Below are positions 1 to 23,804 of a stretch of DNA of 64,000 nucleotides, in pieces. The DNA is from an uncultured Eubacteriales bacterium. Lineage in GTDB: Bacteria > Bacillota > Clostridia > Oscillospirales > Acutalibacteraceae. Under the pieces are notes generated by a model that did no database searches, had not been told where the DNA came from, and was given only the letters and a program-made list of their open reading frames with translations. Made by a program: the position numbers and the translations under genes. The number at the start of each line of letters is the position of its first letter. Positions within the stretch are counted from its first letter, which is position 1. The stretch lies in contig ONYN01000122.1 in the NCBI GenBank assembly GCA_900322085.1, forward strand, positions 460 through 64,459. Reading direction: 5' to 3'.

Positions 1-977
1 ATGTAATCCGGTATTGTTATATGTGTTATCTCGGTGCAGTCATTAAAAGCATATCCACTTATGCTTGTAACAGATCCATCATCCGGAATAATACTGTTGT
101 TGCATCCGAATAGCAAGTATTTGTCTTCTGTTTCAATCAAGCAATTATTCTTTGAATGATAAACTGTGTTGTTTTCATCTACGGTTATTCTTTCAACATT
201 AGAACACCCCTCAAATGCACCTTCAGATATAGATATAATGTTTTCAGGAATATCAATAATTGTCAGTCTGGCACAGTTTTTAAATGCATAATAATCGATA
301 CTTTTAACAGATCCGTCATCAGGAATAATACTGTTTTTACAACCATATATCAGTGTTTTTTCCTCTGTTTCAATAAGGCAGTTACCAGTTGAATGATAAA
401 TTGTGTTTTTTTCATCTACTGTTATGCTTTCAACATTAGAACACCCTTCAAACGATCCCCATTCTATACTTGTTATGTTCTCAGGAATAATAATGCTTTC
501 AAGAGAAATACAATCCGCAAATGAGTATTCATATAAAGTATTAACGCCACTGCCGAATGACACATTTTTAAGCCCACCACAACCACAGAATGCATATTCA
601 CCAATGTTGGTTACACTATTAGGAATTGTAATGTCTGTAAGCCCATTACAACCATAGAATGCATAATTGCCTATACTTGTAACTTCACCTTTAAAGGCGA
701 CTCTCTTCATTGAACTGTAATATTGTCTCCATGGTGCAGTAGTTACAAATAAATCGGTCGCTTGTTCATAGTTGGACCAATAACCATACATATCACCAGT
801 TCCGTTAATCGTCAATGTATCTGTATTTGTATCGTATTCCCAAGTCAGGTTAAACCCGCAAGGGTTCGTTACCGCCGAAGTAATAACATCAAACAGATAA
901 AAGCCTTCGGCCGATGCCACACCGAATGTCATAATGACACACAGCAGAACAGCTAATGCTTTCCTAAAAGATTTCAT
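1..977 (-). CDS. BspA-type leucine-rich-repeat cell-surface protein, N-terminal part (3' end runs off the left window edge)
   Basis: The reverse-complement frame is open from ATG at 977-975 to position 1. It is absent from the ORF track because it has no stop in the window. The translation starts MKSFRKALAVLLCVIMTFGVASAEG (signal peptide). It continues with repeated ~23-aa units such as EVTSIGNYAFYGCNGLTDITIPNSVTNIGEYAFCGCGGLKNV and IPENITSIEWGSFEGCSNVESITV, which is the BspA-like LRR signature. Confidence 0.8.
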   Translation of the reverse strand, partial: MKSFRKALAVLLCVIMTFGVASAEGFYLFDVITSAVTNPCGFNLTWEYDTNTDTLTINGTGDMYGYWSNYEQATDLFVTTAPWRQYYSSMKRVAFKGEVTSIGNYAFYGCNGLTDITIPNSVTNIGEYAFCGCGGLKNVSFGSGVNTLYEYSFADCISLESIIIPENITSIEWGSFEGCSNVESITVDEKNTIYHSTGNCLIETEEKTLIYGCKNSIIPDDGSVKSIDYYAFKNCARLTIIDIPENIISISEGAFEGCSNVERITVDENNTVYHSKNNCLIETEDKYLLFGCNNSIIPDDGSVTSISGYAFNDCTEITHITIPDY

Positions 978-1178
978 AATCGACACCCCTGTAATTATTT
1001 ATGATTGAAATAATCTGTTTATTTATTGTTCATACACGTTAACTGATATTGAAAAGAATTTACATTTTATTAATCATCAGTGCGGAACATTATGCGGTAT
1101 GTTAAACCTTCCTCAAATAATCCATATAATAATTATGTATGGTATGGAACTGTTGAGGAGGAATTAATACCTTTTAAT

Positions 1179-2153
1179 CTATCTGTAATCTATAACATTA
1201 TGGTCACAATCCAGTTTTACAGGTCTGTTGTAAAAGTTAAATCCTCTGTCGAATGTGTTGAACCAGCCTTTTTGAATTATATGCGAATGAAGCAGCAAAT
1301 CAAAATCACTGCGTTCAAAATCATTTTTGACCGGTTTATACCACCTGTCAACATCCTTCTTGTCAAAATGGAAAAGGTCAATTGTTCCGATTGAAACAGC
1401 CTCCTCCATAGGAGCAAATATTTTTTTGATTGAATCGGGAACGCTTTTGTTCTTCAATTCTTCAAATGTTATATAATCACTGTCAGGGTCCACCATCATA
1501 AACATAAAGCCGTTTTCTTCGCAATATTTCTGCAGCGCATTGTATTTTTCAATATTCAAATGATAACTCATAGCAATCGCAGGCTTAACTTCAATTATTC
1601 CGATGCGGTTGTCGTTTGTTAAAATTACAATATCCGGGGAGTATTTGTTGTGAGAAGTAAAATAAGTCGGGTAATCAATGATTAATGCCTGACCGCCGAT
1701 AGCACTGACAACTCCGCTACGCTCAAGATATTCCAGTATTCGTATTTCACTGTTTGAATCGCATTCAATTACATTGCCGCATTTTGTTTTAATCTTTTTA
1801 ATCGGTTTGCCTGAAGGGCTTTTGCCGCAAGACCAGTCAGCGAGATTATTGAAATCATCTGAAGAACAGCGCTTTGCGGCATCTTTGTTCTTAAATTTTG
1901 ACAAGAACCAATGCTCTTTCGGCTTTTCCGGTTGTTTTTTAGGCATTTTGTTTTTTGACTTTATCATTTGAGATTTGTCTTTCAATGACCAGACAAGGTT
2001 TTCGTCCCGCACAAAGATATCTTTACACTCATCACTGTAAAGAAAAGGTTTGAGATAAATAACACTTATTCCGAGCTTCGAAGCGATTTCTTCTGCTTTT
2101 AATCCATTCGGATATTTCATCAGCAGATCTTTGATTTTTTCAACTGTAATCAA
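1179..2153 (-). CDS. Winged-helix + TnsA-N-like PD-(D/E)xK nuclease domain protein
   Basis: TTG start lies 7 nt after AGGAGA. The N-terminus looks like a wHTH (KYPNGLKAEEIASKLGISVIYLKPFLY). The C-terminal half has the TnsA-endonuclease-N pattern ECDSNSEIRILEYLE ... KYSPDIVILT ... GIIEVKP. Confidence 0.6.
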   Translation of the reverse strand: MITVEKIKDLLMKYPNGLKAEEIASKLGISVIYLKPFLYSDECKDIFVRDENLVWSLKDKSQMIKSKNKMPKKQPEKPKEHWFLSKFKNKDAAKRCSSDDFNNLADWSCGKSPSGKPIKKIKTKCGNVIECDSNSEIRILEYLERSGVVSAIGGQALIIDYPTYFTSHNKYSPDIVILTNDNRIGIIEVKPAIAMSYHLNIEKYNALQKYCEENGFMFMMVDPDSDYITFEELKNKSVPDSIKKIFAPMEEAVSIGTIDLFHFDKKDVDRWYKPVKNDFERSDFDLLLHSHIIQKGWFNTFDRGFNFYNRPVKLDCDHNVIDYR

Positions 2154-2257
2154 ACAACCATCTCCTAATCTCAGCTATAAGGCCTTCCTCAAAATTCCCA
2201 TATTAAAAAATTGTATATTGTATGGTTAATATTGAGGATGGATATTTATTTGTTTTT

Positions 2258-5200
2258 TCAATCAACTTTAGCTGTAATAATGTATTTACTCTCGGCTTCG
2301 ACGGTGTATTTTTCTTTATTAAAGTCATCGAATATTACATCAGTCAATATATACAGTTGAGGATTATCTGAATTTACATCGGTAACATAATAAATAAAAT
2401 ATTTTCCTTGATGAGCAACTGCAAAATCATACTCATTGTTTGACAAATAGAATTTGATCCCATCGTTGATAGACTTCGCTGATGTTTTCACTTCGACAAA
2501 GAATCTGTTGTTATTCTCATCAATATATTCCATATCATAACCGAGACCTGCGCGACCCTCTGGATTGATATTTTCTTTTTTCGCATTTTCGGAAATCCAA
2601 TAGACTTTGTGGTGCTTTTTTAACAAATCATAAACATACCTCTCCCCGTTTTTACCATTTCGAACTTGAGATGCTTTTGATTCGTTATTTTTAAATCCAA
2701 CGGTATTGTTATTCGGCTTTACATTTGAAAAAGTAGCGGGTTTAATCGAAAAGTTTTTTACGACTCGAAGTTCTTTATGCGGGCTTTCAATTAATGATGT
2801 ATCGACGGTTTCATCATTATACGATGACAAATATTCTTCAAATCTTCTTCCAAGTTCTTCAAATTCAGCATAATACAGTAAGCTTGTGTTTTCGTTATTT
2901 GACAGAAAACTATCAATAAGATTAAAACCCTCTTTGATGCTTGAAGTCCATTTCTCTTTATTGGTTTTGTAGATCTTGTTTAAATCCATTTGTTTTTCCG
3001 GTTTATTTAAAGAAAATCTTTTAAAAACCACCTCCTCAGCGTTAAAATATGCTGAGTTATGAATGATGTAATCTGCATTATCAAAGTCGAAAAAACAGTC
3101 GACAAGTCGCTTTTTTTCATCAATTGACTTTGTTTTCAACTTTTTATAAATAATGCTTTTATATAATTCGCGATAATCCTGCTTTATTCTTTCTATCTCA
3201 CTTTGAAAATATGAGGTTAAATCAATTTCGCTTGAAACATTACAACTGTTATAATCATCAAAATCTATCTCTAATTTTTTGAATAATTCTATTAAGACAG
3301 AAGCGTTACCTTTCCCGGAAAAATGATCAAAATCAATATTATGAGATAATTGTCTAATATACTTTTTATCATTTTTTGTGATTTTAGAAACAGTGTTGAT
3401 AAATTCATCCTTGATATCTTCTTTAAAATCAAAATACCCTAACGCTTCTTGGACAAGGTGTTCTGATTCTGTGCTGTAGAGATACTCGAGCCGTTCTGAT
3501 TGGCTACCTCGGAAAAACAGGTTTGCGATGTCTTTTAAGGGTTTCGCTATATCCAGGCAAGAGCATATTACTTCCGCTATAGCAAAAGAAAATTTTTGAT
3601 TGTGTTTCATCAGGTTTAATGAGAAATCATAAGGGACTTTTATATATGCTTTACGCTTTTCGCAAACAATATACTCATAATCATCCAGCCGGACTTGGAA
3701 TTTACTGTTATATAAAGCTGTTATTTCAGAACACAAGCAAATATTAATTGAAAGCATTTTTCTTGCTTCGTCCCGAATATCTGTTTTGGATGACAAATCT
3801 TTTAATCTATAAATAAAGCATAAGGGGAGAAACTCCTTGAAATCTCGCCCGAATGTTGATGAATCGTTATGAAGAATCGGTTCCCCAACCGGCTCCCCAT
3901 GAATTCTCAATTCTTTAACACCGAATACTTTTTGAACCTTTGCGACACTTTCTCTTGTATCAAGGCAAATGGTATTAAAATTATTCAAGACCTGTCGGCT
4001 GATACCTTTTTCTGCTAAATAGTAGGTTTCTTTAATCGGTTTATATCCATTATTTGTATAAACCATTCCCTGCTCTAAAAAAGCTTTTCTTTCATCACAT
4101 TCAATTGTCTTTGAATCAAAGTCTTTCTCAAGCAAACATGAATACAAAGATTTTGCTATTGATGATGATTCTTCAATTTCGCACAAATGCATTAACACAC
4201 TGTAGATTTTACTGACAGGCAAATCGTCAAATTCGTTTAATCCTTCTTTAACGCCTAAATCTTTAAAAATTCGTTTGTATTCTTTTCTGACAGTGCTTTT
4301 GTTCTCGTCAATGTTTTTTATATAGTCATCTATGTCCGGAGAAACTAAGTGTGGAGCAAGATTACAATTGCTGTTAAGGATTAAACAATCGTCTATATTA
4401 TATCTCTTGTCATCAACTTGTATCCAGGGAACGGTGCAAAACAAATAATAAATATATGAGTATGGTTTCTTTATTTCATCTATTCTTTGAAATCGGCTGA
4501 TTTTATTTCCCCAAAGCACATTAACGCTACTGGTTGTTGCTTCGTGCTTTGTTGTTAACATACTCCTTAAAGAATCATCATTCCTAATCCATTCTATTAT
4601 ATCTGTGGTTCTGCTGGTTTTTAAGATTTTTTCAAGATTCTCAATTGAAGATCTTTCATATTCGACTTCTGTTATTGCCTTTGAAAAAGCGGAACTTGTT
4701 TTATAAGAATCGTTTCCGATTTTATATGGGTATTTTAGTTCTTCAACCAGTTTACATATAAAATCTCTGTCTTTGCCTCCATACCACCATGAATTATGGA
4801 TGCTGACAGATTCTTTGATTAATCGCGGCAGAGAATCTATACCAAGTTTTTCAAGGAATTCATTTATTAATTCCGTCGGTTGATTCCCAATTATTTCGTG
4901 AATATCGGCGGCAAAGTCAGCTGAGCCGACTTTACCGAGAAGATTGTCACATAAATCATAACCGTATTCTTTGCCTAAATAAAGGGTGCTCGATTTTTTG
5001 TATGTTTTTTTCCTTGTGTAAAACAATATATCAATCGTGGTGCTGTCATCTGATAAGACTATATCTCGATTGTCCCAAAGCCACTTTATAATTTTATCCC
5101 AGTAAGGCTTGGTCTTTTTTTTGCTACTGATTGTTATGTTTAATAACTCTATTATTTCATCAGAATTGTATTCTTTTATACCTAAAGCATCAAAGTATTT

Positions 5201-6916
5201 AAGTGCTTCATCTTTATCATCAAAAATATTCCGAAGAAGATATTCCCTCATAAATGAGTTAAGAAACTCAACTTTTACAAACTCCGGCAGTTTTGAAATA
5301 CTGAGTCCTTCATCTAAGAAAAAAATCGGTATGCCAAAAGGAATGAGTTCATAATCTTCATTAAAAAAGAATGCCGGCATATCATTTGGGTTGGCGTTTT
5401 TGTTAATGTTCCAAGAAAACTCATCTTTAAATGCTTTTGCTGTTCGAGCTATATGCCTTATTTTTTCTTTATTGCCTTCGATATTATCTGTTTTGACATT
5501 TTGTCTCTTAACCCAAGCCTTTACTATTTTGCAGGCATTTTCAAATGAAAATTTATAATCATCTGGGTCTACCGGAAACAAATCATAAATAAAACTGCTT
5601 AAATCTTCTTCTTCCTCAGTATCAAAATCTAAAAGAACTCTGTCAAAATCTTTACCCCTTAAGTATTTAGAAAGACCGGTATTATACCACACAGGCTGAT
5701 ATGTCATCGGTATATATTTTCCGTTGACATTTGGAAGAATCGGCTTTTTAGTTGCGCTGTCCAAAAGATAATCTTCAAATTTATAATCTTTGGATAAATC
5801 AACAGGAAGTTTGCTGTCGTTAATAAGCAGTTTGCAAATTTCATAATCAGCACGTTTTTTTTGTGCAATTTTAATAGCAATATCGACCATAAAACCAGCT
5901 GCCGCTTTTAATATGGTTTTATTTGCGTCCGAATCTTTGGCTAAATGGTTTCTGTTTTGATCAAGAGAAAAACTGGCATGCAAAAGAAACGGATATGGAA
6001 ATACAACATCCGTTTTAAAATAACTATATAAAAATTGTTCATCTTCATCTATTCCCTGATCACAATAAGCTAAGGAAATAATATATGCCTTTTCTTTCGG
6101 CTTTCCGTTATCATCAGTATCAAGATTGTCTATTGTTGTGCCGGTTTTTGTTCGGACATGCCATTCTTTTTCACTTACAATACAATTATTAACTGTTTTG
6201 GAAAGGACAACGCTATTTTTCTTTTTCTTTTTTGAATAAACAACTGAGTATTCATCCGTGTCAATAGACAATATTTCTGTTCGATTCAGGAAAAGAAGAA
6301 TATTTTCATCAAGATTTTTTATCTGATTAATAATCTCTTTGTGTTTCCCTTTTTTAACTTTTAGGGAAATAGTTGTTGTATATTCACTTGCTTTTTTTTC
6401 ACCTATCCATTCGGGAAAAGCTAATGTGGGAGCTTTTTTGTTTTTTACAGGTTCCTTATATTTTGATAATATATCGTTCATTACGGATTTAGCATAATCC
6501 TCAGAAAAACGAACATGCAAATCTCCGCTGTGAATGGTAATTTCATTTGCCCAGTTTAATACAGATCGGAAGCCGGTCCCTTTGTTGCCGATAACTTCTT
6601 TTTGCCTTTCCCTTTTTGAACTGTTGTTAGAATACATTAAAGATATTATGCCGTCTTCAGTAAAAGGAGAACCATAATTTGAGATTGTTAAAACATCTTT
6701 TTTAAACGATATTTCAACTTTTTTATACTCAGATGATGCCTTTTTATCAATTTCATCATCAGCATTTTGCAACAATTCAAGAATTTCACGTCCGTGATAT
6801 GATTGCCAGTCTTTAGTTTCACGGTCATAGTCAGTTCCGACTTGGGCGTTTTCAGTTAAATAAATCGTCTTTTTATTCTCGTTTTTCTCAAGAATAAATT
6901 TCTTCATTTTATTCAT
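2258..6916 (-). CDS. Sacsin/NO VEIN-type GHKL (HSP90-like) ATPase fused to C-terminal DUF3883 restriction-endonuclease-fold domain, 1552 aa
   Basis: The N-box and G2-box of the Bergerat fold are present (REILELLQNADDE; GNKGTGFRSVLNW). The extreme C-terminus (GERYVYDLL ... GLGYDMEYIDENNNRFFVEVKTS ... YLSNNEYDFA) matches the DUF3883 PD-(D/E)xK module. About 1100 aa in the middle are unassigned. Confidence 0.7.
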   Translation of the reverse strand: MNKMKKFILEKNENKKTIYLTENAQVGTDYDRETKDWQSYHGREILELLQNADDEIDKKASSEYKKVEISFKKDVLTISNYGSPFTEDGIISLMYSNNSSKRERQKEVIGNKGTGFRSVLNWANEITIHSGDLHVRFSEDYAKSVMNDILSKYKEPVKNKKAPTLAFPEWIGEKKASEYTTTISLKVKKGKHKEIINQIKNLDENILLFLNRTEILSIDTDEYSVVYSKKKKKNSVVLSKTVNNCIVSEKEWHVRTKTGTTIDNLDTDDNGKPKEKAYIISLAYCDQGIDEDEQFLYSYFKTDVVFPYPFLLHASFSLDQNRNHLAKDSDANKTILKAAAGFMVDIAIKIAQKKRADYEICKLLINDSKLPVDLSKDYKFEDYLLDSATKKPILPNVNGKYIPMTYQPVWYNTGLSKYLRGKDFDRVLLDFDTEEEEDLSSFIYDLFPVDPDDYKFSFENACKIVKAWVKRQNVKTDNIEGNKEKIRHIARTAKAFKDEFSWNINKNANPNDMPAFFFNEDYELIPFGIPIFFLDEGLSISKLPEFVKVEFLNSFMREYLLRNIFDDKDEALKYFDALGIKEYNSDEIIELLNITISSKKKTKPYWDKIIKWLWDNRDIVLSDDSTTIDILFYTRKKTYKKSSTLYLGKEYGYDLCDNLLGKVGSADFAADIHEIIGNQPTELINEFLEKLGIDSLPRLIKESVSIHNSWWYGGKDRDFICKLVEELKYPYKIGNDSYKTSSAFSKAITEVEYERSSIENLEKILKTSRTTDIIEWIRNDDSLRSMLTTKHEATTSSVNVLWGNKISRFQRIDEIKKPYSYIYYLFCTVPWIQVDDKRYNIDDCLILNSNCNLAPHLVSPDIDDYIKNIDENKSTVRKEYKRIFKDLGVKEGLNEFDDLPVSKIYSVLMHLCEIEESSSIAKSLYSCLLEKDFDSKTIECDERKAFLEQGMVYTNNGYKPIKETYYLAEKGISRQVLNNFNTICLDTRESVAKVQKVFGVKELRIHGEPVGEPILHNDSSTFGRDFKEFLPLCFIYRLKDLSSKTDIRDEARKMLSINICLCSEITALYNSKFQVRLDDYEYIVCEKRKAYIKVPYDFSLNLMKHNQKFSFAIAEVICSCLDIAKPLKDIANLFFRGSQSERLEYLYSTESEHLVQEALGYFDFKEDIKDEFINTVSKITKNDKKYIRQLSHNIDFDHFSGKGNASVLIELFKKLEIDFDDYNSCNVSSEIDLTSYFQSEIERIKQDYRELYKSIIYKKLKTKSIDEKKRLVDCFFDFDNADYIIHNSAYFNAEEVVFKRFSLNKPEKQMDLNKIYKTNKEKWTSSIKEGFNLIDSFLSNNENTSLLYYAEFEELGRRFEEYLSSYNDETVDTSLIESPHKELRVVKNFSIKPATFSNVKPNNNTVGFKNNESKASQVRNGKNGERYVYDLLKKHHKVYWISENAKKENINPEGRAGLGYDMEYIDENNNRFFVEVKTSAKSINDGIKFYLSNNEYDFAVAHQGKYFIYYVTDVNSDNPQLYILTDVIFDDFNKEKYTVEAESKYIITAKVD

Positions 6917-6999
6917 ATAAGAACCCCGGTAAAGTAAGTTTATAATACTTCAATTATAATATCCTGTTGCTTTGTTATTTTTCGTCGCATTTAAACAAA

Positions 7000-9900
7000 T
7001 TACGCCGAAATCCAGCCATAGCCCTGAACTGCCATGTCAATAAAGTGATTCAACAGAAGCATTGCCTTCGAGTTGAACGAAACAATATCATAGCTGTCGG
7101 GTAAATCATGGTCGAGAGAATCTTTGATTTCGCTTTCGATTTTCTTCACCGGCTGTTCATCTCTGTACCAGTCAACAACAAACAGTTCGGCTTTCTTTTC
7201 GGTCAATTTCTTATAAAGATTCTTTGCAGAAAGCTTAACTATCTGCTCTTCTGCCTTCGTGAGCTTTTTGCCGACAATAAGCAAATCGTATAGTTCCAGC
7301 TCTTCCTCGGTCAAGCCCTCGGTCTGAGCTCGGTTATCCTCTTCTTTAAGGTCATTTATGAGCTGAATCAACTGCTCATAGTAATCCTCATTCTCGCTGC
7401 CTCCGGCGTTATAGCGGTCAATAATACCCTTATATCTTTGCGAGAACTGCATTCTGGTAATATTTTTATTTATCATCTGCTCAAGCGCTCTTTCAAGAAA
7501 TGCTTTGAGGTCATCAATCTCAATTGCTTTGTATTTTGCCTGGCGTATTTCTTTTCTGAGTTCTTCAGCATCAATGCTTGAAAGATTAATAAACTTATCC
7601 TGATGAATTACAATTTCCTGCTGGTCTTCGGTTTTTGCCGCTTCAACGCTGTAATCAAGCACCGTCTGCATACGGATACGCGCTTCTTTGACTTTTTCAT
7701 CGTCAATGGTATGTTTCAGCAATCCGTGAATATATGCCAAAGGCGCAAATTTGCTGTTATACCAGTTTCTTTCAAATATCTCGGGCTTTGACGCTTCATA
7801 CAGGTTCATCAGTGTATTAAGTAGCACTTTTGCCTGAGTTTTGGTGTCATCATTTGCAACAATGGTGTTATAAACATCCCTGAGCAGATCAAGTCTGTCA
7901 AGGGTGTTTTCCTCTGCAATTATGCTGTCAATATCAATGCCGATTGATTTGAAATAAGAATCTGTTTCTTCTATTGTCGCATCAGTATATGCAATCAGCT
8001 GCGTAACATCTTTTGCAGGGAATTCATCGCTGTCATCACCTGTGGCATACTGCGACAGAGCGGTTTTCATAAATTTAAAAATGTTTACATAGTCAACAAT
8101 GATTCCGCAGGGCTTGTCAGGATATACTCTGTTTGCCCTTGCAATTGCCTGCATAAGGGTATGCCCCTTCATCGGCTTGTCAAGATAAAGGGTTGAAAGA
8201 TTAGGCACATCAAAGCCGGTCAGCCACATTGCGCAAACAAAAACCAACTGAAGCGAATCATCCGGGTCTTTGAATCTGTCTTCAATATCCTTGCCTTCAG
8301 GCGTTATTTCATTCATCTTGGCGCGGTGAGATTCAATATCAAGGCCGTATGCCGTGAATTTGTCTTTCTCCTCGGCATCTTCCGATATTATTACTGCCAT
8401 TTCTGCCTTGTTCATATAATCGAGAATGTCGGTTAACCTCTTGCGCTCATCAGCATCCGAAGTCTGATTGCGTTCTTTGATTATATCTTGCTTTTCAATC
8501 GCCCAGTAATGCTGAACTTTGTCATACATTTTAACAGCGGTATATTTATCAACAGATACAACCATGCCTTTTCCCATAAATCCGCGTCTCGGAAAGTGAT
8601 GGGCAATATCTCTGGCAATTTTATCAAGGCGGTCTTCGCGCTTGATTACCTCAAGCACTCTTGCCTGTGAGTTTTCAAGCAGACCGATTTCGTCTTCGTT
8701 AAGTTCAAGATCTTCAATAATGCTTTTAACATCATCATCGATAAAATCGTTTGTCAGCCATACTTCAGGAACCCTGCGTGAATAGAACAGCGGAACTGTT
8801 GAACCGTCTTCAATGCTCTGCGCAAAGTTATATTCCGAAACATAGTTGCCAAACCATTGATTTGTAAGGCGTTTTGCTCCGAGAAGCGGAGTTCCGGTAA
8901 ACGCTACATAGTTTGCGTTCGGCATTGAGCGGCGCATATTTTCGGCAAGGTCTTTATACTGCGTTCTGTGCGCTTCATCAACAAGAACAAATATGTCATC
9001 CCTGTCTGTCAACTTCGGGTATTTCTCGCCCTTGTCGGTTCTGAATTTATGTATCAGTGTAAATATGAACGGCTTGTTTGACTGCAGATATTCCCTGAGT
9101 TGCTTCGCGTTTTTTGGCTGGCATTCTTCTTTCGGACCGATTACATCTGTTCTTACAAAGGTCTTGTGAATCTGATTGTCAAGATCTTCTCTGTCTGTAA
9201 TAACAACAAATGTGAAGTTACCTGGTATTTTGCGCTTGACTTTGCGGGCAAACATAACCATTGAGAATGATTTGCCGCTGCCCTGTGTGTGCCAGAAAAC
9301 GCCGAGCTTGCCTTCGAGTTCTTTTCTGTTTTTGACCGATTCCATAAGATTGTTAACGCCGAGGAACTGATGGTTCTTCGCGATAATCTTTATGCTCTGA
9401 TTCTGAAAAATGATGAAGTTCTCAATATAATCAATCAGGCGGTCTCTGCGAAGCAAGCCGTCAATGAAATATTTAACAGAGCTCTCGCCCACATCATCGG
9501 CATTGCGAATCGCTTTTCTGTTGGGCTTCTCTTTTTCGCTGTCAACCTTCAGCCATTCAAAAAAGTATTCATATTTTGCATTGAATGCGCCGAGCCGGGT
9601 CTCAAGTCCGTTTGACAGCACACAAATCTGATTGAAAGCAAACAGATTCGGTATATCTTTTTTGTAATTAGTCAGGTTGTCATTATATGCGTCGCGGACT
9701 TTAACAATGCTGTTTTTAAGTTCAATAAACACAAGCGGCATACCGTTTACAAAAATAAGCACGTCGGGTCTGCGCCAATATACTTTGCCCTGAATCCACA
9801 TCTGCGAAACAGCGGTAAAAGTGTTATTCTCGGGGTTTTCAAAGTCAATGAGTTTTACAAAATCAAAATCTTCTTTTCCGTTGCGGCGAACCTTGATTTG

Positions 9901-10215
9901 TATGCTGTTTCTTATCTGATTATAGAGCTTGTAATTGACAGCGGTTATATCCCGACCTGTGAAATCTACGGTCAGGGTTTTAACAACTTCATTCAGTTTT
10001 TCATCCTCAATACCGGGATTGATTCTTCGCAGAGATTTTTTCAGAACTTCCGGCAGAACACACTGCCTTTTGTTGGTGCGGTATGTTCCGTCATCGGGAT
10101 CTTCTCTGTGAACAGGGTCGGGGTCGCAGCGAATGATATCGTAGCAAAACGGTGCGGCTTCAAGTTTTTCAAGTATCGCCTGCTCAATATCGTCTTCGGA
10201 TATGAAGTTGCTCAT
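7000..10215 (-). CDS. hsdR: Type I restriction enzyme R subunit (HsdR)
   Basis: The N-terminal nuclease motif is PDVLIFVNGMPLVFIELKN. SF2 helicase motifs are HTQGSGKS, VLVDEAHRTQY, FTGTPL and QAIARANR. ATG at 10215 has a GGAGA RBS, so the ORF-track TTG start at 10239 is probably an over-extension. Confidence 0.9.
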   Translation of the reverse strand: MSNFISEDDIEQAILEKLEAAPFCYDIIRCDPDPVHREDPDDGTYRTNKRQCVLPEVLKKSLRRINPGIEDEKLNEVVKTLTVDFTGRDITAVNYKLYNQIRNSIQIKVRRNGKEDFDFVKLIDFENPENNTFTAVSQMWIQGKVYWRRPDVLIFVNGMPLVFIELKNSIVKVRDAYNDNLTNYKKDIPNLFAFNQICVLSNGLETRLGAFNAKYEYFFEWLKVDSEKEKPNRKAIRNADDVGESSVKYFIDGLLRRDRLIDYIENFIIFQNQSIKIIAKNHQFLGVNNLMESVKNRKELEGKLGVFWHTQGSGKSFSMVMFARKVKRKIPGNFTFVVITDREDLDNQIHKTFVRTDVIGPKEECQPKNAKQLREYLQSNKPFIFTLIHKFRTDKGEKYPKLTDRDDIFVLVDEAHRTQYKDLAENMRRSMPNANYVAFTGTPLLGAKRLTNQWFGNYVSEYNFAQSIEDGSTVPLFYSRRVPEVWLTNDFIDDDVKSIIEDLELNEDEIGLLENSQARVLEVIKREDRLDKIARDIAHHFPRRGFMGKGMVVSVDKYTAVKMYDKVQHYWAIEKQDIIKERNQTSDADERKRLTDILDYMNKAEMAVIISEDAEEKDKFTAYGLDIESHRAKMNEITPEGKDIEDRFKDPDDSLQLVFVCAMWLTGFDVPNLSTLYLDKPMKGHTLMQAIARANRVYPDKPCGIIVDYVNIFKFMKTALSQYATGDDSDEFPAKDVTQLIAYTDATIEETDSYFKSIGIDIDSIIAEENTLDRLDLLRDVYNTIVANDDTKTQAKVLLNTLMNLYEASKPEIFERNWYNSKFAPLAYIHGLLKHTIDDEKVKEARIRMQTVLDYSVEAAKTEDQQEIVIHQDKFINLSSIDAEELRKEIRQAKYKAIEIDDLKAFLERALEQMINKNITRMQFSQRYKGIIDRYNAGGSENEDYYEQLIQLINDLKEEDNRAQTEGLTEEELELYDLLIVGKKLTKAEEQIVKLSAKNLYKKLTEKKAELFVVDWYRDEQPVKKIESEIKDSLDHDLPDSYDIVSFNSKAMLLLNHFIDMAVQGYGWISA

Positions 10216-10235
10216 AAGAAATTCTCCGTTTAAAC

Positions 10236-11255
10236 TCAATTTATAAATGAATCAATCAAAGCTATAAATTCATTAATCTCAGAAAAATAATTTGGATATG
10301 CTTTCTTTAACATTGAAAACGAAGTGGTTGAAACAAGCACTATATCCTCGTTTGCTTTTCTGGTTTTTTCAGCCCTGTCATATTCAAGTGTTGCCTGTTC
10401 AAGTGCATTCTTTTTAAAAGATTTAATAGACAATTGATTTGTATCTCTATCTAAAATCAACACATAATATCCTTGATCAAGTGTTTCAGAACTATCTACA
10501 TAACCTACAGCTTCTTTAATACTTTTTAACTTTCTTAAAACCTCATATTTTTCCTCATATTTAATAAACTCTTGTATAATACTCGACCGTTTAACAGCTT
10601 CAACTTTTTGACCGTTAGTTTCATATATTTCTAATAACTTTGAAACCGAGATAAAAAACTGTCTGTTATATGGATCGCCTTGACCTATCTTTAATGGATC
10701 TCCGGTAAAAGTATCCATTGTTTCAACTGCAGTTGCCCATAAGTGTTGTACATGTGTGCGGATTTGTATCTCAATAAATAGACCGTTATATTTTGGATTT
10801 CGGTCACTGTTGTATGAATAAACAATATGATAGCTTCTGTACCCATCATCCTTTGGAGTTTTTATGTAGTCATATTCTTCCTTCAGTTTGTGTCGCATTC
10901 TCGATTTCTTTAAAGACTCAACCATATTGTAGACTTCATCAGTAGTATTGAAAATAACTCTGCACCCACCAATGTCTTGCATGGTAGTTAAACTCATATT
11001 AGGGAATCTATATAGTTTTTGCGTAATTGAATACAAACGTTTTAATCTTTGGGCTACAACAGCATCCTCACCCGCTGTTTTCTTGACATGCATATAGATT
11101 ATTTGCAAAGGAAAAGCGTGGGCTGCACGCCAATTATTAATTAGAGTAAGCGCATAATCTTTTTCAGACTTTGAAGATTCATCTGAAACAAACACTTTCC
11201 CCGCTTTTTTTATTTGTGTTTTGGGAAATCTTATTTCTTCATAATTGTGAGACAT
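10236..11255 (-). CDS. RelA/SpoT-family (small alarmone synthetase / toxSAS-like) nucleotide pyrophosphokinase with unassigned C-terminal domain
   Basis: All synthetase motifs are present: QRLKRLYSITQKL, DIGGCRVIF, PKDDGYRSYHIVY and IEIQIRTHVQHLWATAVE. There is no HD hydrolase domain, and the ~140-aa C-terminal domain is unassigned. The gene has a GGAGG RBS. Its start lies inside the last 17 nt of hsdS and its stop is 20 nt before the hsdR ATG. Confidence 0.85.
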   Translation of the reverse strand: MSHNYEEIRFPKTQIKKAGKVFVSDESSKSEKDYALTLINNWRAAHAFPLQIIYMHVKKTAGEDAVVAQRLKRLYSITQKLYRFPNMSLTTMQDIGGCRVIFNTTDEVYNMVESLKKSRMRHKLKEEYDYIKTPKDDGYRSYHIVYSYNSDRNPKYNGLFIEIQIRTHVQHLWATAVETMDTFTGDPLKIGQGDPYNRQFFISVSKLLEIYETNGQKVEAVKRSSIIQEFIKYEEKYEVLRKLKSIKEAVGYVDSSETLDQGYYVLILDRDTNQLSIKSFKKNALEQATLEYDRAEKTRKANEDIVLVSTTSFSMLKKAYPNYFSEINEFIALIDSFIN

Positions 11256-13846: not shown

Positions 13847-14410
13847 TCAATCTACAGAATCCGCGCAGTGCTGAATACGGCTGATTACCTGTTCTACTTC
13901 GTTCCAGTTTCGCACACGCGTCATGCCGTGTGCTTCTGCATCATAACTAATGTTATGAGGAGCTGTCATCAGGATTTTTTTATAGTGCCCGCCTTCCAAA
14001 TTATGAATACCGTCATCAATCAGAACATCTCCATTTATCATTTGTTTGCGGCTTGTAATTATCACATGATCCCAAGACAAAAACGGGAAGTATCTAAATA
14101 GAACTTCACTCATCTTTTCGTAGATGGATTCGTATGGCGTAGCTGTAACAATAAACACTTCGTGCCCAGCGTTAATTAGGCGCTTCAAAGCATCTGACGC
14201 GCCATCAATGGGATCGACGGTTTTCCAGAAACCGGGCTGCATAGGAATATCATAAACCTGCTCACGAGTTAATCCCGGAAAAGCGGCAGATACATCCCAA
14301 GAACGAATCTCCTCGCAGGATACGCTACACCCATATTTTTTGTTGACACCATCAACCCACGCTTTAAGAAGGTGTTCAATCGTGTCATCCATATCTACAA
14401 GAATTACCAT
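13847..14410 (-). CDS. 5'(3')-deoxyribonucleotidase (NT5C family, HAD superfamily)
   Basis: The N-terminal HAD motif is ILVDMDDTIEHLLKAWV (DxDxT). The overall ~190-aa layout matches NT5C/YorS-like enzymes (WDV...PG...FW...P..GA...L.. GHEVFIVTA ... ITS.K....GDVLIDD). The start is either ATG 14410 or GTG 14422. Confidence 0.75.
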   Translation of the reverse strand: MVILVDMDDTIEHLLKAWVDGVNKKYGCSVSCEEIRSWDVSAAFPGLTREQVYDIPMQPGFWKTVDPIDGASDALKRLINAGHEVFIVTATPYESIYEKMSEVLFRYFPFLSWDHVIITSRKQMINGDVLIDDGIHNLEGGHYKKILMTAPHNISYDAEAHGMTRVRNWNEVEQVISRIQHCADSVD

Positions 14411-14449
14411 TTTCGCTTTCACCCTCTGGCTACAGAACTACAAATACGC

Positions 14450-15304
14450 TTATTTATCCATCTTCTCAAGTTCTCCGAGGCTTACTCCGTTTTCATCTTT
14501 CCACTTGAAATTACCGCTTAAAGATGCCCCACCTATAAAACTTGCTGCAGCGGATGGACTTGAAAGAAGCACATCAGCGGTAAGCGTATATGTCTCATCA
14601 ATTAGTTCAGAATACTTTTTGCGGTCTTTTATGGCCCTTTGGGGACAAGCCTTTGTGATTTGTGGATTAAGTTTACTGCCTTTCAAAACAACAAATCCGT
14701 CGCTTGTTCTTTTCCCCACAGCTTTTGCACCGCTATATTCTAAAAACAGTAGTGGCTCCGCTTCATTCTCTGGCGTGAGTGAAACATAGGGCTCAAATAC
14801 CTTATGGCCAAGAGCCCCCATTACTATTTTTGCGTAGTCTATGAACTCTTCAAGCTCGCTTTCTGTTTCCTCCGTGATATTTCCGGGATTAGGATCGTTT
14901 CCATTTTTTACAACGTAACGATTAGCTTGAATCGCTAAATTACAAAAACGATTTTCAAGATAGCTTATCTCTGTTGGCCCGAATGAGTTATTTGAAGTAG
15001 TAAACATTATCGTCTCGGTCCAATAGTCTATTGATGGGTGGGCCTCCTGAACACGAAGCAATAATCCCTTCCCATTTTTTCTGATTCCGGCTTGTCCAAT
15101 ATACACGACAGCGTTATCTTCTTTATCCGTGCCGAAGAGGAAATAGACACCGCTTTGTTTTAAGATATCCATGTCCTTACACTTGTCAAGCGAAGTCCGA
15201 GGTATTTTATAAGCGATACCGGTCCAGTTAGCGAGGGAGCATTTTATTCTGCCGCTCGGCTCTCCATCTATTAGGAATAGTTTTAACGTCTTGCTACGTG
15301 ACAT
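14450..15304 (-). CDS. GIY-YIG nuclease family protein with C-terminal DUF4357-like domain
   Basis: The GIY-YIG core is SGVYFLFG ... VVYIGQA ... R...H, followed by YLENRF. The C-terminal third (FLEYSGAKAVGKRTSDGFVVLKGS ... FSSPSAAASFIGGASLSGNFKWK) fits DUF4357. The ATG at 15304 is preceded by GAGGAGGAAG. Confidence 0.75.
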   Translation of the reverse strand: MSRSKTLKLFLIDGEPSGRIKCSLANWTGIAYKIPRTSLDKCKDMDILKQSGVYFLFGTDKEDNAVVYIGQAGIRKNGKGLLLRVQEAHPSIDYWTETIMFTTSNNSFGPTEISYLENRFCNLAIQANRYVVKNGNDPNPGNITEETESELEEFIDYAKIVMGALGHKVFEPYVSLTPENEAEPLLFLEYSGAKAVGKRTSDGFVVLKGSKLNPQITKACPQRAIKDRKKYSELIDETYTLTADVLLSSPSAAASFIGGASLSGNFKWKDENGVSLGELEKMDK

Positions 15305-15338
15305 AATCTTCCTCCTCAACTACAGACTATCGATATTA

Positions 15339-16184
15339 TTATGAGAACAACGACAAAAAGACCCCGTTCTCCATGTCATTGATGTTATACAAGTGCTGCA
15401 TCGTATTAAAGGTTTCTTCGAGATTTCTTCTGGCACTGCGCCAACCACCACCATCTGTTACCCAGACAAATTCAACTCCTGTAACAGACCGTGCTTCTTC
15501 AGCAATCATCTTATAGCTTCTGGCTGTCTCATTAAGTTTGGAACCGCCTCCGCCATAAAAATTTGTTTCAATAACGTAAATGAGAGAATCCGTTTTAACG
15601 ACGAAATCCCACCGCTTAGTAGATGTGCCTTCAGCGGAAATCGCAGAGAGGTCAACACCCCATTTTTTCTCTATGTCAGTTATATACATTTCCTTGTAGT
15701 ATTCCACACCGGTCTGCTTAATGAATCCTTCTACAAGGTCCTCCATTTGATGGCCTCCACGGTTTTTTCTGCCGTTACTGTCAAGGCCGGTTTCAATGCC
15801 AAGCACATAATCGACGAGGTTATTGACAAGGTGGTTTGCAATCAGATCCAATAAACCGGTTTTTCTCATAAACTCCATATACTGCTCAACGGAGTAACTC
15901 ATTTTATTGAAGTCAAATAGGAATGCACCTTCTGAATCTTGCGCATATATTTCGCTCTGCCGAACAGCCAAGAGTGTGGGAATACACTTCAGTATCTCCG
16001 GATATCTTTGAAGTAAGGAAGAAAAATCTGCTTCAATGTTCTTCGAGCCGATAAGAGAGTTCATGATATTAAGCTCAATTCTTATGCTCTCAACATTGGC
16101 ATAGACTTTTTCAAAATCGACATAGTAATTGTAATTATTTATGCTCGGACGCATCTTTCCAAGCCACTCACTAAAACTCCGCAT
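15339..16184 (-). CDS. dpnB: DpnII-family type II restriction endonuclease (GATC, cuts unmethylated)
   Basis: Long colinear matches to my recollection of S. pneumoniae R.DpnII: NIMNSLIGSKNI, YPEILKCIP, NHLVNNLVDYVLGIETGLDSNGRKNRGG, KRWDFVVK, IETNFYGGGGSKLNETARSYKMIAEE and VEFVWVTDGGGW. It overlaps dpnA by 14 nt. Confidence 0.9.
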   Translation of the reverse strand: MRSFSEWLGKMRPSINNYNYYVDFEKVYANVESIRIELNIMNSLIGSKNIEADFSSLLQRYPEILKCIPTLLAVRQSEIYAQDSEGAFLFDFNKMSYSVEQYMEFMRKTGLLDLIANHLVNNLVDYVLGIETGLDSNGRKNRGGHQMEDLVEGFIKQTGVEYYKEMYITDIEKKWGVDLSAISAEGTSTKRWDFVVKTDSLIYVIETNFYGGGGSKLNETARSYKMIAEEARSVTGVEFVWVTDGGGWRSARRNLEETFNTMQHLYNINDMENGVFLSLFS

Positions 16185-16968
16185 GCAAAACCTCCTGTTG
16201 TAATCTTCTAACTGAGAGTTCGATATATTCCTCTACATTGTCAATGCCTATGTACCGTCGTCCAAGCATTTTGGCAGCAACGCCTGTAGTGGAGCTCCCG
16301 CAAAATGGATCTAAGACCAAATCTCCGGGATTGGTAGAAGCTTCAATTATTCTTTCGAGCAAATACATCGGTTTCTGAGTCGGATGTTTCCCGAACGCTT
16401 TCTCTTTTTGTGAGGTGAGCGGTCCGGTCCAAACGTCCTTCATCTGTTTGCCACCGTTTTGCTGTTTCATTAATTGATAGTTGAAAAGGTGCCTTGACTT
16501 CTTCTCATCCTTTTGAGCCCATAACACCGTCTCGGTACTATGCGTAAAGCATCTACATGCGAGGTTTGGAGGAGGATTTGTCTTTTGCCATGTGATGTTG
16601 TTTATGATCTTAAAGCCCTCTTGCTCTAAGGCCATGCCGATACTATAAATATTGTGGAGCGTTCCACTAATCCATATCGTTCCATTCGGGGTAAGGACAT
16701 TTCTGCATAGACGAATCCATTTTCTATTGAAGGCGTGCTTTTCAGAAACAGATGAAACCTTGTCCCAATCACCCTTATTAACAGAAACCATTTGACCGGC
16801 ATGGCACGTAACGCCATCATTACTCAAAAAGTATGGTGGATCGGCAAAGACCATATCGACTGACGATGGGGCTATCTTTTTGAGAACTGAAAAAGTATCA
16901 CCCAAAAAGAGCATCTCAGTTTCTGTACAATAATATGGAGAAACCCTACCTTTAATCAGTTCTCTCAT
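16171..16968 (-). CDS. dpnA: DpnA-type beta-class N6-adenine DNA methyltransferase
   Basis: Motifs include DMVFADPPYFLSNDG, VSVNKGDWDK, EKHAFNRKWIRL, NGTIWISGTLHNIYSIGMALEQEGFKIINNITWQKTNPPPN, GKHPTQKPMYLLERII and DPFCGSSTTGVAA. These are near-colinear with pneumococcal DpnA as I recall it. Confidence 0.9.
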   Translation of the reverse strand: MRELIKGRVSPYYCTETEMLFLGDTFSVLKKIAPSSVDMVFADPPYFLSNDGVTCHAGQMVSVNKGDWDKVSSVSEKHAFNRKWIRLCRNVLTPNGTIWISGTLHNIYSIGMALEQEGFKIINNITWQKTNPPPNLACRCFTHSTETVLWAQKDEKKSRHLFNYQLMKQQNGGKQMKDVWTGPLTSQKEKAFGKHPTQKPMYLLERIIEASTNPGDLVLDPFCGSSTTGVAAKMLGRRYIGIDNVEEYIELSVRRLQQEVLHAEF

Positions 16969-16981
16969 AAGACATTTCCCC

Positions 16982-17812
16982 TTAATAATTTGTGATTATT
17001 ACTTCTTTTCCAGTTCGTTTTGAGGCGTCACTGTTAATGGCTCTCCGAACATCAAAATGCTCAATCGAAAAGCCGCTATATAGTTCGTGGACAAGAGGAA
17101 CATCATGATTGCTTAACATCACCTTGGCCCCTTGCTCTGACAATCGCCTGTATAGTGCAGCTAACCGTTTGTGGTCTTCGAGCGAAAAACCTTCTTTTGT
17201 GTAATCAGTGAAATTCGCTGTCTCATCAATCGGCACATACGGAGAGTCGAAATAAACAAAATCACCGGGCTGGACATCAAAACACGCGCTTTCAAAATCT
17301 CCTTGACGAATTTCAACGTCTTTTGACCTTAAGTAAAGGCCTATGTTTCTAAGGTTTGCTGCGTCAATCGAGACACCGCCTTTTTTATTGTTGTATGGCA
17401 CGTTGAACAGCCCTTTAGAATTAACCCGATATAAGCCATTGAAACAATGCTTATTAATCCAAATCATCAGCGCAGCACATTCAGGGTCCAGCTCATGGGC
17501 CTTGATTTTTGCGTTATACGCTTCGCGGATCTTCATATATCGCTCTTTGTCGCAAGGTTCAGCATCAAGCACCTGTACCGCAGCAATAACAGCCTCTGCG
17601 TCAATCTTGAGCTGCCTATAGACATTTAAAAGCTGCTCATTGATGTCGTTAATAACCACTCGTTCGGGCTGCAATTCAAGGAGAAGCGCACCTCCGCCTA
17701 TAAAGGGCTCATAATACCTTCCGTAGTCCGTTGGCATATGCGCCTTCAGCCTATCAAGCAGTTGCGTTTTGCCACCTGCCCATTTCACAAACGGTCCTGT
17801 TTTAAATTCCAT
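16982..17812 (-). CDS. dpnM: Dam-type (alpha-class) GATC N6-adenine DNA methyltransferase, DpnM-like
   Basis: Motifs are FVKWAGGKTQLL, YYEPFIGGGALLLEL, VINDIN, NGLYRVNSKGLFNVPY, GDFVYFDSPYVP, FTDYTKEGFS and VMLSN. The ATG is preceded by AGGAGGAAACC. Confidence 0.9.
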   Translation of the reverse strand: MEFKTGPFVKWAGGKTQLLDRLKAHMPTDYGRYYEPFIGGGALLLELQPERVVINDINEQLLNVYRQLKIDAEAVIAAVQVLDAEPCDKERYMKIREAYNAKIKAHELDPECAALMIWINKHCFNGLYRVNSKGLFNVPYNNKKGGVSIDAANLRNIGLYLRSKDVEIRQGDFESACFDVQPGDFVYFDSPYVPIDETANFTDYTKEGFSLEDHKRLAALYRRLSEQGAKVMLSNHDVPLVHELYSGFSIEHFDVRRAINSDASKRTGKEVIITNY

Positions 17813-23783: not shown

Positions 23784-23804
23784 AGACAAGCCCTCCTTTC
23801 TTTG

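Follow-up and report, generated by a model that had tools for sequence, protein, structure and literature searches.

A predicted Tiamat protein of the FORC_005 sub-family and its TnsA-like nuclease neighbour at the end of a clostridial defence island

Does a giant ATPase-nuclease that stands next to a second, much smaller nuclease gene work with it as a two-gene defence module, or is it a defence system in its own right? The question is raised by one end of a defence island in an uncultured Eubacteriales bacterium of the Acutalibacteraceae (GenBank assembly GCA_900322085.1, contig ONYN01000122.1, positions 460 to 64,459), a stretch of 64,000 nucleotides (nt) that we refer to as the window. A first-pass annotation, made from the letters alone, had described the two genes as an uncharacterised conflict module. 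We conclude that window positions 2258-6916 most probably encode TmtA, the stand-alone protein of the Tiamat system, in the sub-family of the Bacillus cereus FORC_005 protein, and that the small gene is a separate resident of the same island.

On the minus strand, translation gave a 1552-amino acid (aa) open reading frame (ORF) with an ATG start and a 324-aa ORF with a TTG start, and both ORFs and all of the motifs quoted in the first-pass annotation were present at their translated positions. The gene upstream of the large ORF, a 1079-aa ORF at 7000-10239 on the minus strand, is a complete type I HsdR by Pfam, as had been proposed. The adjacency of the three genes was also borne out, whereas the exact spacers were not: we measured 83 nt between hsdR and the large ORF and 104 nt between the large and small ORFs, in place of 84 and 105 nt. 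The elements at the centre of the question are as follows.

2258..6916, minus strand: predicted tmtA, Tiamat single-protein defence gene, 1552 aa (full-length match to PADLOC PDLC03964)
2154..2257, minus strand: AT-rich spacer of 104 nt that separates tmtA from the small gene, with AGGAG 8 nt before the small-gene TTG
1179..2153, minus strand: stand-alone gene for a winged helix-turn-helix (wHTH) plus TnsA-like nuclease protein, 324 aa (Pfam, AlphaFold2 (AF2), Foldseek)

The large protein belongs to a family that already has a name. Among the profiles of PADLOC-DB v2.0.0, a library of 2023, it matched the TmtA model PDLC03964 with an E-value of 4.7e-269 and 894.6 bits, in an alignment that runs from aa 3 to aa 1550 of the protein and from position 8 to position 1535 of the 1538 in the model. 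In its supplementary tables, the preprint by Millman et al. (2022) lists the Tiamat of B. cereus FORC_005 as SG165, with the flag 'v' or 'Verified', and describes a cloned fragment of 5883 bp that holds one gene, encoding a TmtA of 1590 aa with the domains 'Hsp90, DUF3684, DUF3883'. The name Tiamat stands in those tables and does not appear in the main text of the preprint. The first-pass statements that the large protein was uncharacterised and that its architecture had no experimentally defined function are contradicted by the PADLOC match and by the verified FORC_005 entry. The same annotation had suggested running PADLOC to see whether the pair was already named; the search named the large protein and found no model for the small one.

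A comparison with the verified protein, which covers the N-terminal 399 of its 1590 residues, showed 33% identity (E 1e-57) in a collinear alignment that takes in aa 4-409 of the window protein. The best PADLOC model for this FORC_005 fragment is PDLC03964 (462 bits), the same as for the window protein, whereas that of the non-protective Enterobacter TmtA is a different one, PDLC03968. The single-polypeptide architecture expected of TmtA is also present, with an Hsp90-like N-terminus, a long middle region and a DUF3883 C-terminus. DUF3684, which the Tiamat authors list, had no Pfam match in the window protein, even at an E-value of 10. By every membership criterion that could be tested, sequence comparison places the large protein in Tiamat/TmtA, as a new, divergent member of a named family with one verified member, and its anti-phage activity is predicted.

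To which group of ATPases does the N-terminus of TmtA belong? Residue conservation was assessed in alignments of 24 and then 71 TmtA homologues, which share 25-43% identity with the window protein, and structure in an AF2 model that covers aa 1-1200 with a mean pLDDT of 88.3. The following elements were delimited.

5852..6916, minus strand: aa 1-355, sacsin/Hsp90-type GHKL ATPase and the beta-rich middle or transducer-like domain that follows it (NF047352, AF2, Foldseek)
6752..6778, minus strand: ELLQNADDE, the N-box, aa 47-55, with E47 as predicted general base, N51 as predicted Mg2+ ligand, and D54
6662..6682, minus strand: SNYGSPF, the G1-box equivalent, aa 79-85, with N80 in the place of the canonical Asp, G82 and F85
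6560..6589, minus strand: GNKGTGFRSV, the G2 box, aa 110-119, with G110, G113, G115 and F116, and the S99-x-K101 lid motif just upstream
5942..5956, minus strand: NRNHL loop with R322, candidate catalytic arginine from the middle domain

The NCBIfam sacsin ATP-binding model NF047352 matched aa 43-129 (E 4e-19, 68.9 bits against a cut-off of 50). When the AF2 model was compared with the PDB by Foldseek, the N-domains of Hsp90, GRP94 and HtpG were recovered with E-values from 4e-4 and a probability of 1.0, as was the GyrB N-domain (probability 1.0), and longer alignments of 367-549 columns were obtained with the ATPase and transducer of viral topoisomerase II (topo II). Matches to MutL and MORC3 were weaker, with the ATPase-CW cassette of MORC3 at rank 50 (E 0.023), behind Hsp90. 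Among the matches listed, only the ATPase part of the model was aligned. Pfam, at E-values up to 10, added only sub-threshold matches to HATPase_c_3 (E 0.036) and NTase_sub_bind (E 0.031). The sacsin-type GHKL N-terminus of the first-pass annotation is thus confirmed by NF047352 and by the structural matches to Hsp90 and GRP94.

Two of the three nucleotide-binding motifs are canonical. The N-box follows ExxxNxxD (E47-x3-N51-x2-D54), with at least 90% conservation in both alignments, and the G2 box follows GxxGxG, with G110, G113, G115, F116 and R117, together with S99 and K101, invariant in the 71 sequences. The G1 position departs from the canonical DxGxG: it reads S-N80-Y-G82-S-P-F85, as had been remarked correctly at first pass, and the family consensus at this position is ISNNGxPF, with N80, G82 and F85 conserved in at least 90% of both the 24 and the 71 homologues. 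All three sacsin repeats have Asn at the position of Hsp90 Asp79 (Asn160/1526/2592) and Phe at the Met84 position (PMC9880540). On the residue correspondence drawn from that work, the ATP sites line up as follows.

Hsp90 E33, L34, N37 and D40: sacsin E116, L117, N120 and D123; TmtA E47, L48, N51 and D54
Hsp90 D79: sacsin N160; TmtA N80
Hsp90 M84: sacsin F164; TmtA F85
Hsp90 S99 and G100: sacsin S178 and K180; TmtA S99 and K101
Hsp90 G118, G121, G123 and F124: sacsin G188, G191, G193 and F194; TmtA G110, G113, G115 and F116
Hsp90 T171: sacsin T269; TmtA T181

All of the sacsin-type ATP-site residues of TmtA are conserved across the 71 homologues. Because these conserved residues map one-for-one onto the sacsin-type site, SNYGSPF is, as judged from the alignment, a normal G1 variant of the sacsin clade and no defect. 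The middle domain may supply one further residue. R322 and N323 are invariant in both alignments, and the AF2 model places the R322 loop between a strand (311-314) and a long helix (330-351). Because the middle-domain arginines of Hsp90 (R380) and sacsin (R474) occupy the same strand, loop and long-helix setting (PMC9880540), we infer that R322 is a candidate catalytic arginine.

The remainder of TmtA consists of a long region that resembles nothing named and a recognisable nuclease.

2687..5851, minus strand: aa 356-1410, alpha/beta region particular to the family, without a domain that can be named, confidently modelled by AF2 over aa 356-1200
2348..2644, minus strand: aa 1425-1523, DUF3883/NOV_C PD-(D/E)xK nuclease domain (Pfam PF13020, E 8.3e-13)
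GYDMEY, minus strand: aa 1459-1464 of the large protein, position checked on the translation
FFVEVKTS, minus strand: aa 1472-1479 of the large protein, position checked on the translation

No Pfam match was found for the middle region, even at E-values up to 10. A PDB sequence search with the single TmtA sequence returned nothing, and one with a profile of 24 TmtA sequences returned only a spurious 46-residue match to LEKTI/Kazal (E 0.01), so that TmtA has no solved relative detectable by such sequence searches. Self-comparison of eight TmtA segments with hhalign revealed no internal repeats (best probability 14.5%), so that no tandem array of smaller units is visible in the middle region. It does contain scattered residues that are invariant among the 71 homologues, namely P395, P697, W831, C844, Y905, Y925, G950 and C1062. 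The C-terminal DUF3883 nuclease suggested at first pass was recovered as Pfam NOV_C, so that profile searches found both of the domains on which the earlier reading was built (NF047352 and PF13020). Its catalytic set, E1425, D1461 and E1475-x-K1477, is intact, and invariant in all 24 homologues.

What might such a protein do? We tentatively favour a model in which TmtA would be an ATP-gated DNA clamp that licenses its C-terminal nuclease, by analogy with MutL, type II topoisomerases and paraMORC3. ATP would bind the Bergerat fold, with E47 as base, N51 holding Mg2+, N80 contacting adenine, S99 and K101 forming the lid, G110-G115 forming the loop and R322 contributed by the middle domain. Binding and hydrolysis would drive a cycle of N-terminal dimerization, or clamp closure, like that of MutL, topo II or MORC proteins, on DNA recognized by the middle region, and the cycle would license the nuclease to cut phage DNA. 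The ATP dependence, the trigger, the substrate and the outcome of Tiamat action, whether direct restriction or abortive infection, are inferred. The first-pass idea of ATP-driven DNA sensing and cleavage is a reasonable hypothesis. A 2023 survey and a 2026 review both give the mechanism of Tiamat as unknown, and one preprint classes Tiamat as a single-gene PD-(D/E)xK system.

The strongest competitor to the clamp model, to which we give roughly one chance in a few, is that TmtA is a chaperone-like sensor whose Hsp90/sacsin-type module and middle region would bind a phage protein 'client' in place of DNA; a rearrangement driven by ATP would then free the nuclease to cut host and phage DNA indiscriminately and cause abortive infection. 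In structure the ATPase does come closest to the N-domains of Hsp90 and GRP94, its sequence flavour is that of sacsin, and Pfam and PDB profile searches found no recognisable DNA-binding domain in the middle region of approximately 1050 aa. The text of the Millman et al. 2022 preprint also mentions 'chaperon-associated domains' among its systems. Against this stand the GHKL modules that are fused to or paired with nucleases, as in MutL, topoisomerases and paraMORC3, which act on DNA (PMC2292703), and the long Foldseek alignments with the ATPase and transducer of topo II. The clamp model remains the one that we prefer for TmtA.

The small gene behind tmtA raises a question of its own: is it a working nuclease, and of what kind?

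1980..2153, minus strand: aa 1-58, N-terminal wHTH, three helices and a two-stranded wing (AF2)
1479..1811, minus strand: aa 115-225, PD-(D/E)xK core with E136, D174 and E188-V-K190 (small-family alignment A4)
1182..1478, minus strand: aa 226-324, C-terminal helical/beta domain, aligned by Foldseek with TnsA beyond the catalytic domain
YSPDIVIL, minus strand: aa 171-178 of the small protein, position checked on the translation
IIEVKP, minus strand: aa 186-191 of the small protein, position checked on the translation

Pfam assigned the small protein to Tn7_TnsA-like_N (PF08722; E 7.5e-7, 30.1 bits against a gathering cut-off of 26.5). Its AF2 model (pLDDT 90.1) shows the wHTH, a disordered linker, the PD-(D/E)xK core and the C-terminal domain, and the top Foldseek match was Tn7 TnsA, with E-values of 3.7e-4 (1t0f) and approximately 4e-4 (1f1z) over 215-230 columns. 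The second nuclease of the first-pass annotation, a wHTH joined to a TnsA-like domain, is accordingly well supported by PF08722, AF2 and Foldseek. In the family alignment D174 is invariant, E136, E188 and K190 are at least 90% conserved, and Y272, F284, W297, N299, F305 and P311 are conserved in the C-terminal domain. The wHTH itself matched the winged helices of IclR, FeoC, DtxR-family proteins and Zalpha/Zbeta domains (TM about 0.7-0.77 relative to the target), with a weak Pfam match to HTH_69 (E 0.0075).

The N-terminus of the small family is interchangeable. In some relatives it is swapped for a Zn-ribbon-like, Cys-rich domain or a longer one while the nuclease is kept, and elsewhere the nuclease core is fused to RuvB-like AAA+, ADP-ribosylglycohydrolase or RNAP-alphaCTD/sigma-r4 domains. 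An exhaustive profile search with the small family returned 1303 clusters with an E-value of 1e-3 or lower; 268 of them reach 1e-10 and 55 reach 1e-30. No profile in the 2023 PADLOC library matched the small protein or any family member tested. The relatives also keep defence company. The gene in P0004 (50% identity to the small protein) follows SNF2 and BREX genes, that in P0005 follows Dcm, Vsr and EcoRII, and that in P0014 follows a type IIG restriction-modification (RM) gene and a second TnsA-like gene. The relative in P0022 stands beside BREX, that in P0020 before a gene for a 161-aa product and a Macro-domain gene, and that in P0008 (70%) between AAA and UvrD-like genes. Recognised defence genes lie within 8 kb in five of the eight distinct small-gene contexts.

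These sequence features suggest to us that the small protein acts independently within defence islands, as an effector nuclease whose sensor domain varies; we take it for a candidate single-gene system and not for a part of Tiamat. That it represents an unnamed, stand-alone defence nuclease family, composed of a TnsA-like core and C-terminal domain with interchangeable N-terminal sensors, is a proposal to which we give somewhat less than even credence. The contrary reading, improbable in our view, is that the small gene is no defence gene at all and is either the TnsA remnant of a decayed Tn7-like element or a wHTH regulator of the island. TnsA does provide its best Pfam and Foldseek matches, an N-terminal wHTH is present, and Foldseek found a weak likeness to the BrxR regulator (E 0.014, probability 0.38). 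Yet no transposase or TnsB/TnsC-like gene is adjacent, the neighbours being tmtA and a gene for a BspA-type leucine-rich repeat (LRR) protein; the Tn7 remnant was rejected because transposition genes were not found nearby. Because E136, D174, E188 and K190 are conserved across the small family, an active nuclease is favoured over a pure regulator or a pseudogene, and the defence contexts and the swapping of the N-terminal domain around a retained nuclease also count against this reading.

Three side observations concern the small family. Foldseek aligned the wHTH of the window protein with the Z-DNA-binding Zalpha/Zbeta domains of ZBP1, E3L and CyHV-3 ORF112 (TM 0.69-0.77 relative to the target, 21-26% identity), matches no better than those to winged helices of the IclR, FeoC and DtxR types. 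In P0012 and P0017-19, an N-x-x-x-Y motif in helix 3 and a Trp in the wing (A4 columns 1-115) resemble the Zalpha signature, a lead only; where that motif has Asn, the window protein carries K. In contig L093 (1076-2013), a 70%-identical relative is only 185 aa long, comprising the nuclease and C-terminal part, and follows an 85-aa ORF with a weak HTH_11 match; this gene may be split, frameshifted or naturally in two parts.

Are tmtA and the small gene a pair? When GTDB genomes were scanned with the TmtA alignment, 381 relatives were found, of which 80 loci were kept with up to 6 kb of flanking sequence on each side. These loci come from Bacillota, Bacteroidota, Desulfobacterota, spirochaetes, Saccharibacteria, Gracilibacteria and a haloarchaeon. 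None of the 80 contained a tblastn match to the window small protein or to any of 22 of its relatives. Clustering of up to three genes on each side of TmtA revealed no recurrent neighbour family: apart from clusters that include pieces of TmtA, the largest spans five loci, and one five-locus cluster of approximately 1000-aa proteins is read as HsdR-like from its size and its PADLOC and Pfam matches. The 130 immediate neighbour ORFs (±1) include type I and type II RM, pAgo, HNH, Schlafen-type helicase, integrase, recombinase and transposase genes by PADLOC and Pfam. The closest TmtA with usable flanks, that of P0025 at 41% identity, has no TnsA-like neighbour.

Seen from the small gene, the result was the same. 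Seven of the eight distinct small-gene contexts, with relatives at 35-85% identity, lack TmtA, and even in P0002, where the relative is 85% identical, the gene that precedes it does not resemble TmtA. Only P0001, at 95%, repeats the order hsdR, tmtA, small gene, and its contig, L005, is 96.5% identical by blastn to window positions 922-10216, which comprise that same three-gene block. Two shorter contigs, L006 and L007, match the end of the block that holds the 3' part of tmtA and the small gene, at 95-97% identity. Identity ends near the hsdR start in L005 and 55 nt into the downstream LRR gene in all three contigs; the genes upstream of hsdR in L005 are different (174-aa and 649-aa products), as is the LRR_5 protein encoded downstream. 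Because these three contigs carry strain variants of one block, at 95-97% identity, they are no independent evidence for a pair. TmtA is a stand-alone gene with no conserved partner, and the adjacency of tmtA and the small gene in the window is a chance or lineage-specific one and no conserved unit. The two-gene module proposed at first pass, which was to be judged by the co-occurrence of the two genes across divergent genomes, is thus not supported from either side.

Some features of the locus do suit a dedicated two-gene module with the small nuclease in an accessory or regulatory role. The genes lie 104 nt apart on the same strand; a consensus scan of the minus strand of the spacer 2154..2257 found no terminator-like and no promoter-like site; three other metagenome contigs preserve the pair; and the G+C contents of tmtA (32.5%) and the small gene (36.6%) are lower than those of most of the island (41-44%), a property shared by the embedded RelA/SpoT gene (32.5%), while the prophage that adjoins the island stands at 53.5%. 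With the loci above set against it, with copies of the small gene at 35-70% identity in other defence contexts, with TmtA as the sole gene of the verified Tiamat in the Millman et al. 2022 supplement, and with family sizes in a word-indexed search of at least 595 clusters for TmtA against 22 for the small family, we regard a dedicated module as very improbable. A weaker, add-on version, in which the small gene is co-expressed and cooperates with Tiamat in the window lineage, may hold.

Several points weigh against our identification of a stand-alone Tiamat protein beside a separate nuclease gene. Because identity to the verified TmtA is only 33% over the compared 399 of 1590 residues, equivalent activity is assumed. 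One TmtA, that of Enterobacter (SG164), carries the flag 'x', for not protective, in the Millman et al. 2022 supplement, and therefore membership of the family is no guarantee of function. ATP binding and hydrolysis by sacsin-type domains are under debate, according to PMC9880540. A literature search on Tiamat and TmtA returned only surveys and reviews, and nothing on the trigger or the substrate. The PADLOC library dates from 2023, and the small family could have been named since. Lastly, the pair is kept in the three contigs of about 96% identity, with no terminator-like site between its genes.

The wider setting is that of defence. From 1179 to 23789 every gene lies on the minus strand, in a defence island of approximately 23 kb that tmtA and the small gene close; the defence context claimed at first pass is borne out by Hachiman, DpnII-type RM and type I RM with PDC-S33 in this one island. 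Its other genes, and those that flank the island, are listed below.

22320-23789, minus strand: first gene of a Hachiman-like pair, HamA-domain protein of 489 aa (Pfam HamA E 4e-36)
19717-22323, minus strand: second gene of the pair, DEAD/ResIII helicase of 868 aa
17926-18597, minus strand: MutH-like gene
16982-17812, minus strand: Dam-type methyltransferase of a DpnII-type RM system
16171-16968, minus strand: N6_N4 methyltransferase of the DpnII-type RM system
15339-16184, minus strand: DpnII restriction endonuclease
14450-15319, minus strand: DUF4357 protein
13847-14422, minus strand: NT5C 5'-nucleotidase
10236-11255, minus strand: RelA/SpoT-domain protein of 339 aa, between hsdS and hsdR (Pfam RelA_SpoT E 7e-23)
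1-977, minus strand: BspA-type LRR_5 surface protein gene with signal peptide, running past the window start (Pfam LRR_5 E 3e-46)
~24400-64000, plus strand: prophage, 53.5% G+C, adjoining the island

The RelA/SpoT gene matches the PADLOC candidate PDC-S33 over its full length (E 9.4e-115) and shares 17 nt with hsdS and 4 nt with hsdR. It looks like a candidate defence gene of the small-alarmone-synthetase type that has been inserted into a type I RM operon (hsdM, hsdS, hsdR). The prophage carries genes for a sigma-like factor, an exonuclease, a Gp2.5-like single-stranded DNA-binding protein, a DNA polymerase, a primase-helicase, a helicase and a ParB-methyltransferase, as well as TerL (39907-41508), portal, tape-measure and tail proteins and two serine recombinases (60431-63759). 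A transfer RNA (tRNA) scan of the window found none, and hence no tRNA-linked boundary of the island. Proteins of the source genome cluster with proteins from Eubacterium sp. 14-2 and from Clostridia metagenome-assembled genomes.

The flanks of relatives in other contigs contain further recurrent arrangements. LRR_5 genes also flank the small-nuclease relatives in L001 and L010. A small relative is followed by a gene for a 161-aa product and by a Macro-domain gene of 350-361 aa in L003 (8001-10677), L004 (8001-10677), L010 (5357-7799) and L011 (5351-7793), that is, in two contexts with two contigs each, which could be a conserved three-gene cassette. A DUF6339 gene follows genes for proteins of approximately 300 aa and more than 600 aa, both without a Pfam match, beside a small relative in L002 (1-1798) and beside a TmtA relative in L094 (2-3820); this group may be another recurrent defence-island cassette.

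Overall, the giant protein would be called Tiamat by the defence-annotation pipelines now in use. The residue map of TmtA offers mutant targets for the idea of an ATP-gated nuclease, in the ATP site (E47, N51, N80, S99/K101, G110-G115 and T181), in the middle domain (R322) and in the nuclease (E1425, D1461, E1475 and K1477). TmtA is also a tractable bacterial protein that shares the Asn-for-Asp ATP pocket with human sacsin, whose ATPase activity is disputed. The small TnsA-like family may plausibly be a new defence nuclease that works as a single gene, and this unnamed family and the mechanism of Tiamat are the only leads that the locus offers.

How do the two proteins compare with known systems? 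The small protein shares with Tn7 TnsA (1t0f, 1f1z) a restriction-endonuclease-like domain followed by a C-terminal domain, with an E...D...ExK set. It differs in its extra N-terminal wHTH, in having no tnsB or tnsC nearby, and in its relatives, which are found in defence islands with RM, BREX, Macro and AAA genes as neighbours. For TmtA, the paraMORC3 and MutL proteins, with a GHKL and S5 module and a C-terminal endonuclease (PMC2292703), provide the same fusion of an ATPase and middle domain to a restriction-endonuclease-fold nuclease with an E-D-ExK set, and Foldseek matches TmtA to the ATPase modules of MutL and MORC3. The paraMORC3 proteins with a nuclease are also found encoded by lone genes whose neighbours are not conserved (Iyer, Abhiman & Aravind 2008, PMC2292703). 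In contrast to these, the ATPase of TmtA appears to have the Hsp90/sacsin flavour and not that of MORC, and approximately 1050 aa separate it from the nuclease.

Eukaryotic sacsin, with its SIRPT repeats, and plant NO VEIN have the same ATP-site variant as TmtA, with Asn for the G1 Asp, Phe for Met84, an S-x-K lid, GxxGxGF and a candidate Arg loop before a long helix; NO VEIN also has the C-terminal NOV_C/DUF3883 domain. No likeness to sacsin outside the ATPase domain was seen in the matches to Pfam SACS, which cover only aa ~35-225 of homologues. Sacsin, which is taken to be a chaperone, combines three ATPase repeats with Ubl, DnaJ and HEPN domains, whereas TmtA has one ATPase and a PD-(D/E)xK nuclease and lies in a defence island. 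The nearest relative is the Tiamat of FORC_005. The window TmtA differs from it as a divergent protein from an uncultured, gut-type, Clostridia-like genome, known from sequence, in which Pfam does not detect DUF3684. The two have in common a single polypeptide of approximately 1550 aa, an Hsp90/sacsin-like N-terminus, a DUF3883 C-terminus, the model PDLC03964, and a place in a defence island without a partner gene.

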